Positions 3,811 to 9,583 of a stretch of DNA of 9,583 nucleotides are shown one piece after another (position 1 is the stretch's first letter; each line of letters starts with the position of its first letter). The stretch is taken from IMG/VR virus record IMGVR_UViG_2617271049_000002; one strand, written 5' to 3'. The DNA comes from a virus. Lineage: Duplodnaviria; Heunggongvirae; Uroviricota; Caudoviricetes. The notes beneath the pieces are model-generated. The model made no database searches. It was not told the origin of the DNA and saw only the letters and a list, made by a program, of their open reading frames with translations. The position numbers and the translations under genes are program-made.

Positions 3811-5001
3811 TTAATTGCTGTTAACCGAGGTGACCAGATTTGCCAGATATTTATCAGTAATACGCTGGCGCAGGGTCAGGTTTTCGAGAGGAGGCACCGG
3901 GGTATAGTCATAGTCGATATACAGTTTTCCGGCCTTGAGGGTTTCCGCATCGTTGGATTCTTCGCTGAACCAGCAGGTCGCATCCACGATATAGCCGTTT
4001 GTTTTCAGCTCACGGAATTTGGCATTGATGCCGTCAACGATGTCGCGAATCAGCGTTGCGGTGATGGGCTTATCCACCGCCCACATGTGCGCCTCAGCCA
4101 TCGTGTCGGCCAGCACCTGCGCGGTGCGGGTGTAGTTTTCAAAGAGGAACAGTGGGTCATCAGAGCAGGTACGGTTACCCCAGAAGCGGAAACCGTCACG
4201 GCGAATCAGCGTTGTGACACCTGACTCGTTCAACAGGTCAGCATCGGTGCCGGACTCCTGCAAATCCCAGAATACAGAGGCGCTGATGCCGGTAACACCG
4301 TTTACCCCGACATTGGACAGCGTTTTATGCCAGCCCTGCTCCTGGTCGATTTTAGCGCGCAGACCCAGCGCACGGGCGGTGGCATACGCGGTGGCGGTGG
4401 TGCTGCTGACCGTATCCCATGCGAGGAAATCCGGCCAGATGACCATCAGCTCACGCTGGCTGAAATTCTGGCGGTAGGCTTTCACCTCGGAAATAGTCTT
4501 ACAGCCCCATGCGCTGATATATCCGAAAGCGCGCAGCTTCTGACAGACGGATGCCAGTGCAACAGCCACCTCTTTGGTATCCAGTCCCGGCACACCGAGA
4601 ATACGCGGTTTAACACCGGTTACCGACTCCGCCGCCAGCAGGGCTTTCAGTCCGGTGTACTGACCGTTTTCGTCGGTGGTGCCGATGATATTGGAAACGG
4701 TCTGCGCGAGTTTCGTTTCTTCGTCATCGCCGGTGCCGTCTTCCACGCGCACGACAACGGTGACCGGTTTTGACTGGTCGGCGATGGCCTGCAACGATGC
4801 CGCCAGCGTGCCTTTTTTACCGGCCTTTGCAATTGCGCTCTGCACATTGGTAATCAGCACAGGTTTATTGAGGGGGAAGGTTTCCGCATCCGCATCGCTG
4901 GCCGTGCAGACCATGCCGACAATGGCCGTGGATACGGTGGAAATGACGCGGGTGCCGTCGTTAATCTCCAGCACCTGCACGCCGTGATGATAGTCGCTCA
5001 T
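3811..5001 (-). CDS. FI: Contractile tail sheath protein, P2 gpFI-like (396 aa).
   Basis: Complete ORF MSDYHHGVQVLEINDGTRVISTV...YLANLVTSVNSN, which I recognise as near-identical to P2 FI. GGAG lies 9 nt upstream of the ATG. Confidence 0.92.
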   Translation of the reverse strand: MSDYHHGVQVLEINDGTRVISTVSTAIVGMVCTASDADAETFPLNKPVLITNVQSAIAKAGKKGTLAASLQAIADQSKPVTVVVRVEDGTGDDEETKLAQTVSNIIGTTDENGQYTGLKALLAAESVTGVKPRILGVPGLDTKEVAVALASVCQKLRAFGYISAWGCKTISEVKAYRQNFSQRELMVIWPDFLAWDTVSSTTATAYATARALGLRAKIDQEQGWHKTLSNVGVNGVTGISASVFWDLQESGTDADLLNESGVTTLIRRDGFRFWGNRTCSDDPLFLFENYTRTAQVLADTMAEAHMWAVDKPITATLIRDIVDGINAKFRELKTNGYIVDATCWFSEESNDAETLKAGKLYIDYDYTPVPPLENLTLRQRITDKYLANLVTSVNSN

Positions 5002-5093
5002 CCGTTTAACTCCGTGGTTAATGGGTGCAACTATTTTCTGTTGTGCAGAGCATGAGACGCTATTTGACCTGGCTGGTCAGGGGATGAAACAAC

Positions 5094-5123
5094 AGATAAA
5101 GAAAATGCGGGCAATTCGCCCGC
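5094..5123 (-). terminator. Rho-independent terminator for minus-strand transcripts leaving the cargo cassette.
   Basis: Minus-strand sequence GCGGGC-GAATT-GCCCGC followed by ATTTTCTTTATCTGTT: a 6-bp GC stem, 5-nt loop and U-rich tail. It lies about 155 nt downstream of the cargo gene B stop and about 95 nt upstream of the FI start. Confidence 0.6.
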
Positions 5124-5184
5124 CTGTCCTGATTTGTACTCACTCATTTTCCGCCTGACAATTTACATAGCCCAAATGCTATCA

Positions 5185-5219
5185 AATCTGACAGTCTGCT
5201 TTGAGCGAGGAGCGGAAGT
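5185..5219. repeat. Left copy of a 35-bp imperfect inverted repeat that brackets the AT-rich cargo (AATCTGACAGTC-TGCTTTGAGCG-AGGAGCGGAAGT).
   Basis: It matches the reverse complement of 7458-7492 at 31 of 35 positions: two perfect 12-mers separated by an 11-mer with 7/11 identity. It sits at the GC/AT composition boundary. Confidence 0.8.
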
Positions 5220-5276
5220 TCGCTTTGCTCCCGTGTTAATAGTGGGTATTAATCAATCGGGAGCATAACCATAGAA

Positions 5277-6434
5277 TTAGCTGTTTGATTCAGCATCAGC
5301 AACTTTTCTATATTTAGTAAGCAATTCTACTTTACGTAATTCAATCTCACGCATAATGTTTGATTGAATATCATGTATTTTAGAGGGCGACGCACCTTTA
5401 ACCTTTATATTTATAAAGGTAATGCACAATTCAGGATTAACAGGGGTTTTTCTTCCATATTCACTAAACTCGTATGCAACCTTACATTCACCTGAATAGG
5501 ATTCATAGCTAATTGTGTAACTTGCGACAACCTTAGTAACACGTACATACGGGTGTATGTGTTTCCATTTGATAGATATTATATTCTCTAGATTTCCTTT
5601 GACTCTATACTGGTCAATATCTTTTTCGAGAAAATTAGTCACAGCATCTGATTGTTTTTCGTAACCAGTAGAATGATCCGGATTAAAATGAACATCATCT
5701 ATTTTTTGATGGTAGAATAAGTATCCAATATGAAGGGATGCTAATTCATTAAGGAATTTTACTCTGTTTTCATTTTCAAAATCATCCATCAGAACTCTAC
5801 CTCGATGAGGCGAATGTTCAATTATATTATTTCTTTCCAAATGCTCCTCTATCAAGGTTATGACATTTTCAGCTATTTCTTTAGTTTCCGGAGATGTGTG
5901 ATTTAGTTTTACATTCATTAAAAGCTGGGAGTTACCAGTGATGCCATTAACGTCTTTCTTGATTTCCACAGATCCTTTAAAGAACTTCTCAGTTATATAC
6001 CAATCATCTAGAATATCTGTCTTGCAAATTTCGAACTCCATTATTACGGAATTATTACTTCTACCATCTAGAGATGTAAAATCGCTAAAATCTGATATCT
6101 CATAATTAATGTAACCATTTTTTGTGATTTTACTAACATCTACAAACCCACTAACTTCACCAAGCAAATCAACATCTTGCTTAAGATCAAAATTCCTGAA
6201 ATTTACTTTATCTAATTTTTCCTTTGTTTTAATACTGCTTAGTAAATCATAAGATTCATCAGGGCTTAGTAAAGAGGTGATCAAGTTTGGAACTGTGCCT
6301 GATTTTTCAGACACTCCGCAAAAAAGCCCTCTTTCTTTAAGTAGATTATTGATCATTGTAGAGCTACAGTTCTGCTGGCTCACAAGATTTTTCAGTTCAT
6401 CTCCGGAGGGGATGAAATCAATATCATTTTTCAT
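5277..6434 (-). CDS. Cargo gene B: hypothetical protein of 386 aa (MKNDIDFIPSGDELKNL...RKVADAESNS) with no motif I recognise; second gene of the two-gene cassette.
   Basis: Long ORF in about 30% GC DNA, where stop codons are frequent, so the ORF is very unlikely to be chance. I place the start at the ATG at 6434, which has an AGGAG Shine-Dalgarno (complement of 6443-6447) 8 nt upstream, rather than the TTG at 6470 used by the ORF track. The start overlaps the stop of gene A by 11 nt (ATGAAAAATGA), implying translational coupling. No Walker A motif is visible. Confidence 0.8.
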   Translation of the reverse strand: MKNDIDFIPSGDELKNLVSQQNCSSTMINNLLKERGLFCGVSEKSGTVPNLITSLLSPDESYDLLSSIKTKEKLDKVNFRNFDLKQDVDLLGEVSGFVDVSKITKNGYINYEISDFSDFTSLDGRSNNSVIMEFEICKTDILDDWYITEKFFKGSVEIKKDVNGITGNSQLLMNVKLNHTSPETKEIAENVITLIEEHLERNNIIEHSPHRGRVLMDDFENENRVKFLNELASLHIGYLFYHQKIDDVHFNPDHSTGYEKQSDAVTNFLEKDIDQYRVKGNLENIISIKWKHIHPYVRVTKVVASYTISYESYSGECKVAYEFSEYGRKTPVNPELCITFINIKVKGASPSKIHDIQSNIMREIELRKVELLTKYRKVADAESNS

Positions 6435-7350
6435 CAGAAATGCTCCTGAAGGTGCTATTATAAGAATCAACGATTAATGTAATATCTCCAACGACATCCT
6501 CAGAGCCATCTTCAAAATTTTGCGCCATTTTGACTTCATCAACTGAAGGGGAGTCTGTGAGTTTATTATATTTATTGAAATAAATCTCATAATGATTTGC
6601 GAAATCGGAACAAAGCTTTCTAGCTAATTTATACACCAACCCTAGTGATTCTTTACTGTAATTAAAATCGCAAAGTAATATAAATTTTCGCCCATTATCA
6701 TCAGGCACAGAAATGGGAATTATTGGAGAGGTAATGTATTCAACAGGCATTATTTTAGAATGTCTTGTTGAAGATGAAACATTTAAGGTAGTGTTAAGAC
6801 AGAAAAAAGATATTTCACCATGCTTTTTCTTGATAAAGCTTATCGAGTTGTATAAAAATTTTGCTCTTGCGTTATCAACGAGATGTATGGCGTTGAACTT
6901 GAGGGTAGAATCGATTCTATGATTGATGATTTCACCTTTAATATTATCATTTGAATCGCTTTCATCATTATTTAAATAAAACAAAACCCCAATATCTTCT
7001 TTTCTTGAACTACCTGGAAATTGTCTTGTTATGGTTCTTTTAAACTGGGATTTTGAATAACATTCAATGGTGTGTGCCAAGTCTTTGAAATGTGAGCGAA
7101 AAGTAGTTTTGACTTTATCGTAAGGTACTGATGAATACTTTGCAGAAACAACAACGCTTACTAATGATTGTTTTTGAAGCATAGAGTTGTAGACATACAA
7201 AGCATCTATTCCATGTGTCTTTTTAGCATGTTCTCCCACGCAGCAATCTAATTGCTTGTTACTACATAGGTTTTTCCATCCAAAGAGTTTCAGAAAGTCA
7301 TTGACTATCTCTTCGCCCACCTCGCCGACATATTTTGAGAACTCGCCCAT
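6424..7350 (-). CDS. Cargo gene A: hypothetical protein of 308 aa (MGEFSKYVGEVGEEIV...RSISDEK); first gene of the cassette. The N-terminal ~75 aa may be a nuclease-like module, which is speculative.
   Basis: Long ORF in AT-rich DNA with ATG at 7350. The N-terminal region shows a spacing of acidic helix (GEVGEEIV), then HGID on a hydrophobic stretch, then VVVSAK, which loosely resembles an E...D...(E/Q/S)xK nuclease signature. This is recognition by eye only. Confidence 0.8.
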   Translation of the reverse strand: MGEFSKYVGEVGEEIVNDFLKLFGWKNLCSNKQLDCCVGEHAKKTHGIDALYVYNSMLQKQSLVSVVVSAKYSSVPYDKVKTTFRSHFKDLAHTIECYSKSQFKRTITRQFPGSSRKEDIGVLFYLNNDESDSNDNIKGEIINHRIDSTLKFNAIHLVDNARAKFLYNSISFIKKKHGEISFFCLNTTLNVSSSTRHSKIMPVEYITSPIIPISVPDDNGRKFILLCDFNYSKESLGLVYKLARKLCSDFANHYEIYFNKYNKLTDSPSVDEVKMAQNFEDGSEDVVGDITLIVDSYNSTFRSISDEK

Positions 7351-7385
7351 TACCTAAACCGCCGTCTATTAAATTATAATTCTTT

Positions 7386-7414
7386 ATAGTATTAATCTTA
7401 TTCACATTTATCAA
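7386..7414 (-). promoter_or_regulatory. Candidate sigma-70 promoter for the cargo operon: TTGATA (-35), 17-nt spacer, TACTAT (-10).
   Basis: Hexamers read on the minus strand about 35-65 nt upstream of the gene A ATG. A perfect TATAAT also lies closer to the ATG. The region is AT-rich, so chance matches are likely. Confidence 0.25.
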
Positions 7415-7457
7415 CATTAGGAGTAAGCAAGACGAATTAGTAGTGAGTCATCAATCG

Positions 7458-7492
7458 ACTTCCGCTCCTGGCACAGAGCGGACTGTCAGATT
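7458..7492. repeat. Right copy of the 35-bp imperfect inverted repeat bracketing the cargo (plus strand ACTTCCGCTCCTGGCACAGAGCGGACTGTCAGATT).
   Basis: Reverse complement matches 5185-5219 at 31/35. It sits at the other GC/AT boundary, 108 bp upstream of gene A. Confidence 0.8.
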
Positions 7493-7510
7493 AGGCTTTA
7501 CTCTGTGCCA
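7469..7510 (-). promoter_or_regulatory. Stem-loop downstream of G: 10-bp perfect stem (TGGCACAGAG / CTCTGTGCCA) with a 22-nt loop; function unknown.
   Basis: Perfect inverted 10-mers at 7469-7478 and 7501-7510, starting 22 nt after the G stop. One arm lies inside the right inverted-repeat copy. There is no U-tract after it on the minus strand, so it is not a canonical intrinsic terminator. Confidence 0.35.
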
Positions 7511-7532
7511 TAGATATGTAAGCTAATACAAC

Positions 7533-8060
7533 TTATTGCGGCATTTCCGGCCATTCAGGATTTGCAGGATCCACACGACTGACCAGAACGCTGTAGCGTT
7601 CCCATGATTCCAGTCGGCTACGCTCCTCATCTGTTGCCATGTTCAGTCTGACCGCGCGCTCCAGCGGCAAAATCACGGATTCAGCATCTGCAAGAAGTCT
7701 GGCTTTCTGAATTTCTGCCTGCTGCTGTAATTCCTCTGCCGTATAAATGCGTTTAATCACTTTGCCGTCCTTAAACATCCAGTTCCCTGAAATGTCCGCC
7801 CGTCGGTTAGCAGTAATATCCGCCACTTCAACAACACTTAATCCATCCGGTCTGATAGCTGTCACATCCTTTTCCACATAGTGGATGATATTATCTTTGT
7901 CGTACGCTATTTTTATCGTGTCATCAGCAAAATACTTTTGTTCTTCGTACCAGTTCTTACCATCTTCTGAAAAAAACCAGACAACATCAAAGTCCTTTGT
8001 CAATTGATATTGTTCAACCGTTTTTGGATTACCCGCCGTAATATTTTTTAAATGCTGCAT
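7533..8060 (-). CDS. G: Tail fibre assembly protein, P2 gpG-like (175 aa).
   Basis: Complete [23 protein letters not shown]...[13 protein letters not shown], which matches my recollection of P2 gpG. Its ATG lies 3 nt after the H stop (TAA-TTT-ATG). Confidence 0.9.
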
Positions 8061-8063
8061 AAA

Positions 8064-9583
8064 TTATACCTGCGCCACGTTATACCATGTCCCGTTAATG
8101 TATTTCTGCACCGGTCTGTAATATACGCCACCAATGTTATCGGCAGAGTTTGAGCCGGTATCCTGAACAATAATGCCGGTATATACGCAACCTGACGGAG
8201 CCTGATGCGTCCATGTAGTACCATTATTTGCTGGTTTATATGTAGATGCACCGCCCAGCCGCATGTCTCTCACATAACGTGAATCTGATTCAGCTTTGGT
8301 GTATGCACCAACATCTCCCGCTGAGGGTTTATGAGCAGTTGTATATAGTTGCGCCCATCCAGACCAGTTAGCATCTGTGGTATCTCGTCGGGAGCGAATA
8401 TATGCCGGAGCATGAGCACCGCTGGTTCCACTCCAGCCAATAAGTAACTCACCCTCTCCTACTGCGGTTACGCCAGTGAGATGAAGCACATTACCATAGG
8501 CTGTTGGGTAGCCATTGTTGTATGCCTCATACATCTGAATACCTGGTGTCCCCTTTACGCTCCCACCTAATGCAGTAACACGGTTTCTGGATACCAGTGT
8601 ATTAATATTTATATCAGCAGAGCCATCAAATCTGACACCATTAATATTTCTTGCGTTCGCTAACTTCGTTGCTGTTGCAGCATTTCCCGAAAGGCTGGAA
8701 ATAAATGGATGTGAGCAGTAATAACCGCGCCCATTTTTAAAATCCAGAATAGCCTGTGCGTTCGTGCTTTCTGTAGCAGGATTAGTTGCCCCCCACTTAT
8801 ATGTCGTTTGACCGACGACATAATCCTCTGTCGGAACAATAACCGTTAGCCCTTCCTCTGCAAGAATTTGCACAGGGAAAGCTCTGGCTTCAACATAAAA
8901 AACACTACATACATCATCATCTTTCAGGCTTGTAACAATGGAATGGATTGAACGCTCATTAGTCTGATACGTCCAGAAATAACCTGCCGCATATGAACCA
9001 CGATCAGTCCAGCCTCCGGGCATAACCATGCCATTAAACTCGCAGTTATTCATTACATAATCGCTGTTATAACAACCAGTGGAAATAACGACGCGGGATG
9101 CCATTTCTCCTGAAAGGCTGGCAGCACGGCGAAAGATAACGGGATACCACTTCCCGGCAACGACATTTGCAGGGGCTGCAAACGAATACTTTCGCATTCC
9201 CTTTTTCTTATCCACTTCACCTTTGCTGTAAACATTAATGTTACTCAGGAAGCGTCCTTTATCAGGAATATCCGCACCGTTCTGATCTTTCTGAAGACGT
9301 TTTTCAGCATTGTCATAGGCAGACTTCACCGCTTTTGGTGTTGCGGCCTGCGTTTCAGAATCACTGTTGGTGGCGCTACTGAGCTGGACAAGGCCTTTCC
9401 GCGCGGTGGTGGCATCCTGTGCAGTGTATTTCCCGTTAGCAAGGTCATACGCTGTCTTAACCGCCTTTGGCGTTGCCGCAAGCGTTTCAGAATCGCTGTT
9501 GGTGACGCTACTGAGCTGGACAAGACCTTTTCGCGCTGTGGTGGCATCCTGTGCAGTGTATTTCCCGTTAGCAAGGTCATACG
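8064..9583 (-). CDS. H: Tail fibre protein, P2 gpH-like; 3' portion only, the 5' end lies beyond the window.
   Basis: The frame is open from the window edge to the stop at 8064-8066. The ORF-track start at 9329 is an internal GTG. The upstream in-frame translation reads ...AATPKAVKTAYDLANGKYTAQDATTARKGLVQLSSATNSDSETQAATPKAVKSAYDNAEKRL..., the repeat motif I recall from P2 gpH. The C-terminus ...YRPVQKYINGTWYNVAQV resembles the P2 H C-terminus. Confidence 0.88.
   Translation of the reverse strand, partial: YDLANGKYTAQDATTARKGLVQLSSVTNSDSETLAATPKAVKTAYDLANGKYTAQDATTARKGLVQLSSATNSDSETQAATPKAVKSAYDNAEKRLQKDQNGADIPDKGRFLSNINVYSKGEVDKKKGMRKYSFAAPANVVAGKWYPVIFRRAASLSGEMASRVVISTGCYNSDYVMNNCEFNGMVMPGGWTDRGSYAAGYFWTYQTNERSIHSIVTSLKDDDVCSVFYVEARAFPVQILAEEGLTVIVPTEDYVVGQTTYKWGATNPATESTNAQAILDFKNGRGYYCSHPFISSLSGNAATATKLANARNINGVRFDGSADININTLVSRNRVTALGGSVKGTPGIQMYEAYNNGYPTAYGNVLHLTGVTAVGEGELLIGWSGTSGAHAPAYIRSRRDTTDANWSGWAQLYTTAHKPSAGDVGAYTKAESDSRYVRDMRLGGASTYKPANNGTTWTHQAPSGCVYTGIIVQDTGSNSADNIGGVYYRPVQKYINGTWYNVAQV
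9320..9583 (-). repeat. Two tandem 132-bp (44-codon) direct repeats inside the tail fibre gene, cut by the window edge.
   Basis: Region 9452-9583 is near-identical to 9320-9451 at an offset of 132 bp. They encode the AATPKAVK(T/S)AYDLANGKYTAQDATTARKGLVQLSSATNSDSET(L/Q) unit. Confidence 0.85.

Follow-up and report, generated by a model that had tools for sequence, protein, structure and literature searches.

GAPS4 is a two-protein anti-phage system that was discovered as cargo of Vibrio GMT islands and that protects Escherichia coli (bioRxiv 10.1101/2023.03.28.534373). A further preprint by Mahata et al. (bioRxiv 10.1101/2025.09.07.674715) covers the Vibrio system together with a homologous one, GAPS4-RiKo of E. 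coli RiKo 2299/09, in which the subunits are WP_028132563.1 (GapS4a) and WP_028132564.1 (GapS4b). Here we analyse a stretch of 9,583 nucleotides (nt) of viral DNA from IMG/VR record IMGVR_UViG_2617271049_000002, hereafter the window. It comes from the tail gene region of a P2-like prophage, in which two cargo genes lie between G and FI. These cargo genes very probably constitute GAPS4, carried as a self-contained unit at the prophage's G/FI (Z/fun) defence hotspot.

The biochemistry of GAPS4 is described in the preprint of Mahata et al., from which all statements in this paragraph are taken (bioRxiv 10.1101/2025.09.07.674715). GAPS4-RiKo expressed from its native promoter on a low-copy plasmid lowered plating by up to 10^6-fold within a panel of 73 phages, and for the Vibrio homologue both genes were needed for defence. 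GapS4a has a non-canonical PD-(D/E)xK motif, HGxD-SxK, in which the substitution D49A abolishes defence by the RiKo system. The Vibrio complex is a 2:2 heterotetramer by size-exclusion chromatography with multi-angle light scattering, and AlphaFold3 models of both systems have GapS4b as a ring with the GapS4a active sites facing outward. Host DNA and lambda DNA are both degraded, the host chromosome after infection and also after nalidixic acid, and GAPS4 can be triggered without any phage by nalidixic acid or by a DNase of a type VI secretion system. At a multiplicity of infection (MOI) of 5 viability fell about 40-fold, with no measurable drop at an MOI of 0.1. Phage homing endonucleases weaken the defence, and over-expressed GAPS4 is toxic.

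The location has its own literature, as the G/FI locus was reported to be the second defence-enriched site of P2-like phages (Vassallo et al. 2022, PMC9519451). In the P2 reference (NC_001895) the same interval holds fun(Z), which blocks T5. Like the cargo described here, fun(Z) is AT-rich, excludes other phages and occupies the slot between the same break points to the base; it differs in being a single gene, on the opposite strand and of unrelated sequence. Among other defence systems, Shedu and Hachiman resemble GAPS4 in having a PD-(D/E)xK effector that is released on free ends or abnormal DNA (discussion of bioRxiv 10.1101/2025.09.07.674715), and Shedu is also found in this P2 slot. GAPS4 differs from both in its sensor, GapS4b, and in lacking a helicase, and no sequence relationship to either was detected.

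Identification of the Cargo Genes

Every gene in the window lies on the minus strand, in the order D (partial), T, E/E', FII, FI, the two cargo genes, G and H, with H overrunning the window end. The original prediction, made from the sequence alone, had placed two co-oriented genes, A and B, with ends overlapping by 11 nt, between G (7533) and FI (5001), and these coordinates are confirmed: the overlap is 6424-6434, with gapS4a (A) upstream of gapS4b (B) on the same strand. The length given for A (308 residues) is correct, whereas the 386 residues given for B included the stop codon, and the gapS4b boundaries agree with those called by the Prokaryotic Genome Annotation Pipeline (PGAP) in an identical locus. 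The AGGAG Shine-Dalgarno sequence proposed for B is present (Table 1).

Both translations pass the curated NCBIfam models for the two subunits. GapS4a scores 291.3 bits against NF047933 (cut-off 270, E 8e-87, residues 1-280) and GapS4b 324.1 bits against NF047934 (cut-off 300, E 9e-97, residues 8-371). The 2533-nt interval between G and FI recurs with 100% identity in three complete E. coli genomes, in which the PGAP annotation of the two genes reads gapS4a and gapS4b. The translations are identical to WP_028132563.1 and WP_028132564.1, which are encoded in NZ_CP063518.1 in a locus with the full P2-like gene order, part of a complete prophage adjoining yegQ/ogrK. Precomputed Pfam matches of the same proteins are PF26115 (PDDEXK_GAPS4) and PF26110 (GAPS4b_N). 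In a large assembly collection the exact GapS4a sequence occurs in 576 blocks, with P2 context in 10 of the 10 matches listed. GAPS4 is recognised by gapS4a followed in tandem by gapS4b, or by a fusion of the two, and the window pair has the tandem arrangement.

The original prediction saw no confident motif in either protein, thereby missing both halves of HGxD-SxK in gapS4a (Table 1); with this motif and the PF26115 match on record, GapS4a is a candidate member of the PD-(D/E)xK superfamily, which has a restriction-endonuclease-like fold with catalytic D...(D/E/S)xK residues. Compared with GAPS4-RiKo, the window has identical proteins, the same gene order and 11-nt overlap, HGxD-SxK with D49, and the upstream promoter block. 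There is no gene difference between the two, and what the window adds is context, namely the P2 G/FI location and the cassette borders. The word "prophage" is absent from bioRxiv 10.1101/2025.09.07.674715, and the present locus shows where GAPS4-RiKo resides natively, in the Z/fun slot of a P2-like prophage. The system itself is already known, being named in RefSeq, NCBIfam and Pfam, and the exact proteins have been characterised; as it stands, the finding amounts to a correct re-identification, made from sequence alone, of a defence system and a hotspot that were both already in print, and by itself matters little.

Table 1. Positions of the cargo genes, their signals and their neighbours within the window
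Feature	Position	Strand	Remarks
G, tail fibre assembly	7533-8060	-	left neighbour of the cargo in the direction of transcription
G-side inverted-repeat arm	7458-7492	.	35 nt; 89% complementary to the FI-side arm
Promoter-like TTGATA-17-TACTAT	7386-7414	-	consensus scan; carried by the cassette
gapS4a (gene A), nuclease subunit, probably PD-(D/E)xK-type	6424-7350	-	308 residues
Codons H46-G-I-D49, first half of the HGxD-SxK active-site motif	7204-7215	-	motif located in gapS4a
Codons S69-A-K71, second half of the active-site motif	7138-7146	-	motif definition from bioRxiv 10.1101/2025.09.07.674715
Shine-Dalgarno AGGAG of gapS4b	6443-6447	-	within the gapS4a 3' end; 8 nt ahead of the ATG at 6434
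gapS4b (gene B), partner subunit, presumed DNA-sensing ring	5277-6434	-	385 residues plus stop; ATG at 6434
Cassette 3' hairpin, just past the gapS4b stop	5222-5269	-	-17.4 kcal/mol, z -4.4
FI-side inverted-repeat arm	5185-5219	.	35 nt; partner of the G-side arm
Backbone intrinsic terminator (GCGGGCGAATTGCCCGC + T run), separating the F-operon late promoter from the cargo slot	5097-5123	-	scan, folding
P2 late promoter PF region (Ogr-binding site, transcription start)	5025-5098, approximate	-	homology to NC_001895 features
FI, tail sheath	3811-5001	-	right neighbour of the cargo

Weighing the Alternatives

Four points weigh against the identification of the pair as GAPS4 acting as a prophage defence system. 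A local scan of Pfam-A gave no family for either cargo protein, PADLOC 2.0.0 returned nothing beyond a weak "Hp1" match (E 2.9e-5) in the N-terminal half of GapS4a, the mechanism rests on one preprint, and the activity of GAPS4-RiKo was seen from a low-copy plasmid and not from a prophage. The two database results would suit the original prediction of a new, undescribed defence system of unknown mechanism, as would the lack of any significant PHROGs match for the cargo proteins and of any relative of either in a sequence search of the PDB, and hence of a sequence relative with a solved structure. A new system is nevertheless hardly credible, given that the curated GapS4a and GapS4b models are both passed, that RefSeq annotates the locus as gapS4a/gapS4b, that the proteins are identical to ones already characterised experimentally, with a published DNase mechanism (bioRxiv 10.1101/2025.09.07.674715), and that the Pfam families are named after GAPS4. 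Because the NCBIfam and precomputed Pfam matches are clear, the misses most likely reflect copies of the Pfam-A and PADLOC libraries that lack GAPS4 models rather than doubtful membership, and pipelines using those versions of Pfam-A and PADLOC-DB (2.0.0) would miss GAPS4. The experiment proposed with the original prediction, cloning under the native promoter followed by a phage panel, has in effect already been carried out on these genes (bioRxiv 10.1101/2025.09.07.674715).

Two further explanations accept the pair as GAPS4 and concern what it does. In the prophage its main role might be addiction or stabilisation, or the sensing of host DNA damage to the prophage's benefit, with phage defence a side effect observed on plasmids; GAPS4 kills its own host upon DNA breaks, is toxic if over-expressed and was tested on plasmids only. 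P2-type prophages are not known to be SOS-inducible, and in such an element the sensing of DNA damage could serve another use. We consider this role improbable in view of the up to 10^6-fold defence obtained from the native promoter at low copy number, of a slot otherwise filled by defence genes (fun(Z) against T5, Shedu and systems of the Vassallo screen), and of the presence of the cassette in classical defence islands beside GmrSD, PLD and AAA_15/HNH genes. Less probable still is a direct, restriction-like immunity in which only incoming linear phage DNA is degraded and the cell survives: it would account for the degradation of incoming lambda DNA and for the absence of a measurable loss of viability at an MOI of 0.1, but not for the roughly 40-fold lower viability at an MOI of 5 or for the degradation of host chromosomal DNA after infection and after nalidixic acid. 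We retain GAPS4 as an anti-phage system of the abortive type, which the original prediction had named, beside superinfection exclusion, as most likely and which the literature on the identical proteins supports.

Proposed Mechanism and a Predicted GapS4b Ring

As proposed in the literature on the identical proteins, GapS4a would be a divergent PD-(D/E)xK DNase that requires GapS4b, the two acting as a 2:2 complex in which two GapS4b subunits would form a ring. The complex would stay silent until DNA breaks or linear ends arise, whether through phage infection, nalidixic acid or a type VI secretion system DNase, and once activated would degrade host and phage DNA indiscriminately. The infected cell would die and phage spread would be blocked, i.e. 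abortive infection.

To this scheme we would add a candidate sensing step, based on structure prediction, in which GapS4b would form a toroid like that of RdgC and could be loaded on DNA only by threading over a free end; the threaded ring would sense the break and would hold both outward-facing GapS4a nucleases in position. Closed-ring threading of this kind would make breaks and linear DNA the trigger and would thus give a testable physical reason for the requirement for free ends. RdgC is a ring-shaped dimer that binds double-stranded DNA in a hole of about 30 Å (PMC1885664), and lambda RexA, a prophage exclusion protein, has the RdgC fold (PMC11077077). RdgC is not mentioned in bioRxiv 10.1101/2025.09.07.674715.

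An AlphaFold2 model of the GapS4b monomer, built with 33 homologues, has a mean predicted local distance difference test score of 78.8 and a predicted template-modelling score of 0.72, and comprises an N-terminal helical domain and two alpha+beta modules. Kinetochore proteins of generic fold score almost as high as RdgC against this model. A Foldseek search of the PDB with the model gave weak START/Bet v 1-like matches alone, with query template-modelling scores of about 0.17, which were not used. GapS4b has no sequence similarity to RdgC or lambda RexA and, unlike them, has an additional N-terminal helical domain, which is a predicted nuclease dock; its ring formation and DNA threading are likewise predicted. 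The RdgC-like fold is accordingly put forward as a lead.

The G/FI Slot as a Site of Cargo Exchange

The base composition sets the cargo apart from its surroundings. The interval between G and FI (5002-7532) has a G+C content (GC) of 35%, with 33.9% in gapS4a and 33.0% in gapS4b, somewhat above the roughly 30% first estimated. Of the flanks, which had been put at 55-60%, the FI side agrees at 56% and the G/H side falls short at 46.5%. The view of the original prediction stands: the AT-rich DNA in the G/FI slot of this P2-like prophage is cargo acquired by horizontal transfer.

So does its proposal that the slot is a swap site. The flanks are matched in 1335 of 5426 complete E. coli genomes, of which only three have this cargo; in others the slot contains, for example, an S1 peptidase, an HNH endonuclease, Shedu or hypothetical genes. 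An artificial empty-site query, in which the left flank was joined to the right, found no cargo-free G-FI junction in E. coli, and INPHARED contained no phage record with this cargo. Homology between the window and P2 breaks at 5220 (P2 17429) and at 7461 (P2 15357). The conserved backbone resumes at 7458-7461 on the G side and ends at 5216-5220 on the FI side in prophages with other cargo and in P2, the break points being exact in P2 and in four other E. coli prophages with different cargo, and the variable DNA proper is about 5220-7457.

The signals around the genes divide between cassette and backbone. A promoter of the cassette's own had been predicted, and a block of about 110 nt upstream of gapS4a is indeed kept with the cassette in non-prophage loci of Ewingella and a Yersinia-like genome, in keeping with an autonomous two-gene module with its own promoter; the consensus match itself is no better than chance (9 sites versus 10.4 expected). 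The predicted downstream terminator, a hairpin with a T run, also exists (stem 5123-5107, -14.1 kcal/mol, z -3.3), but it belongs to the P2 backbone, within the flank common to all cargo types and just upstream of the Ogr-dependent promoter PF, and the hairpin of the cassette is a separate one (Table 1). In the Yersinia-like locus the stem of this 3' hairpin is kept as a perfect 19-bp stem of different sequence. Alignment places the PF transcription start near 5025-5027 and the Ogr site with its 3' end near 5069.

The GAPS4 Cassette outside Prophages

GapS4b homologues with 94-98% identity occur in Citrobacter, Yersinia, Raoultella, [Pantoea] beijingensis, Rahnella and Ewingella. Three loci with such homologues were examined and none is a prophage. 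In [Pantoea] beijingensis (L157) the genes lie in a defence island beside PLD, GmrSD and helicase genes, with gapS4a split by an insertion sequence; in Ewingella americana (L160) they are on a separate 105-kb replicon, adjoining resolvase genes; and in the Yersinia-like genome (L161) they lie in an island with PDDEXK_4 and AAA_15/HNH genes. The matches to the cassette (L157 1030-1166 and 4736-6208, L160 3958-6241, L161 3899-6206) have 90-92% DNA identity across the whole cargo and end inside the inverted-repeat arms that border it, from 7470-7478 to 5195-5228 of the window. An (AGCAGA)n hexanucleotide microsatellite is found at the upstream junction in L157 and L161.

Inverted-repeat Arms at the Cassette Borders

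The arms listed in Table 1 are the last 32-35 nt of each conserved flank, and similarity to the four E. coli prophages with other cargo and to P2 stops exactly at their inner ends. In a census with a strict search pattern at least 120 IMG/VR contigs matched. These loci gave 72 inward-facing pairs enclosing cargo of 550-6533 bp with a GC fraction of 0.32-0.46. When viral and species-genome loci are pooled (135 in all), the inward orientation is found in 73 of 78 pairs of adjacent arms; these pairs come mostly from related P2-like loci and do not represent independent events. In the P2-like contigs that were checked the distances from arm to gene are fixed, e.g. 184 nt to the FI start and 44 nt to the G stop in L036.

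The arms also occur away from these tail genes. Species-representative genomes gave 15 arm loci, in Morganella, Xenorhabdus, Serratia, Yersinia, Pantoea, Raoultella, Yokenella, Lelliottia, Enterobacter, E. albertii and a metagenome-assembled genome, and FI and G were nearby in only 1 of the 15. The exact arm is present in 420 of the 5426 complete E. coli genomes, strains 536 and Nissle included, and some of these copies are in islands without P2 genes.

Several smaller observations concern these additional copies. The arm is 100% identical in islands of E. coli 536, Nissle and the EcPF14 type, and is conserved in Serratia, Pantoea, Yokenella, Xenorhabdus and others. Outside P2 prophages it brackets unrelated accessory DNA with its TCCGCT end toward the cargo, as at 780-811 and 4001-4032 in L008 and at 4005-4036 and 6083-6114 in L009, and also in L013, L015, L018, L023 and L025. 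In the locus from Ewingella a G-type-like arm comes 17 nt after an FI-type arm (L160 6220-6283). Successions of an FI-type and a G-type or G-type-like arm, spaced by about 17-20 nt, together with additional arms after neighbouring genes, were noted in L160, L018 (7238-7301) and L157 and L161 (7208-7229), against a chance expectation of 0.005 arm hits per shuffled locus. From the order of these sequences it looks as if arm-bounded cassettes can lie in series.

Established kinds of element were considered for the arms. A P4 hotspot boundary was rejected since phage P4 has no arm. There is no integron integrase, attI site or GTTRRRY core, as would be expected for an integron cassette, and for a transposon with terminal inverted repeats the cassette has no transposase. 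No target-site duplication was found beside the arms, where the outside bases are not direct repeats, and recombinase genes near other arm copies are inconsistent, none being steadily associated; because of these two results both the transposon and the integron readings were rejected. A role in RNA structure is not supported, the internal hairpin showing weak covariation in a sample biased by the search pattern and the sense-strand fold of the FI-side arm being not significant (z 0.43). Neither the arms nor the cassette matched an Rfam family, and ARAGORN predicted no tRNA or att-like gene.

Fragments of the arm sequence, looked for in the literature, turned up unrelated primers alone. The title of a 2004 paper by Nilsson et al. 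(Mol Biol Evol 21:1) points to site-specific recombination at these loci, and that work may already cover part of what is described here; for this reason we make no claim that the arms are novel. In a 2026 preprint on hotspot swapping in P2 and P4 the recombination process is given as still unknown and inverted repeats are unmentioned. The nearest analogues are the PeSL mobile regulatory cassettes of T4-type phages (PMC2839356) and integron attC sites, which like the arms are short, conserved, structured motifs bordering variable accessory genes; all of them could be cross-over points for modular exchange. The arms differ in being 32-nt inverted arms and in occurring, within Enterobacterales, in islands and a 105-kb replicon as well as in P2-like prophages.

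It is possible, though we regard it as rather doubtful, that GAPS4 travels as a discrete cassette and that the arms are an undescribed junction element for the swapping of cargo among P2-like prophages, islands and plasmids of Enterobacterales. As a tentative part of that proposal, the order in the cassette would be G-type arm, promoter, genes, 3' hairpin and FI-type arm. Borders formed by repeats that also occur outside phages give a concrete lead on how defence cargo might be exchanged among these elements. Only two parts of this analysis might merit further work, both as leads: the RdgC-like fold and the cassette that is bounded by repeats and moves between contexts.

Other Features of the Prophage

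Several observations concern the rest of the prophage. In the stretch from 7533 to 9583, G and the 3' part of H have a GC of 38-50%, below that of the rest of the tail operon. G varies among otherwise near-identical prophages: its amino acid identity is 73-99% for the majority of IMG/VR loci and falls to about 33-39% in a small number of loci, E. albertii included. This variable stretch of G and 3' H is the familiar mosaic host-range module.

The tape-measure gene T holds two runs of 10 N (883-892 and 2197-2206), which replace 65 and 106 nt of the near-identical prophage L001. Because real DNA has been replaced, the 765-residue open reading frame of T with its X residues is a masking artefact, the true protein having 815 residues.

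The same prophage in strain EH01-18-02 (L001) extends beyond the window, and its portal-adjacent region (36328-38530) contains a reverse-transcriptase family gene, a helix-turn-helix gene and one hypothetical gene. This is the side on which P2 has its tin/old hotspot, and the region has a retron-like look; the prophage therefore probably has two defence cargos.

Within H, positions 9312-9583 contain a 132-nt tandem repeat (2.1 copies, 90% matches), which encodes the usual 44-residue fibre repeat (...ATPKAVKTAYDLANGKYTAQDATTARKGLVQLSS...) and is ordinary in P2-type fibres.

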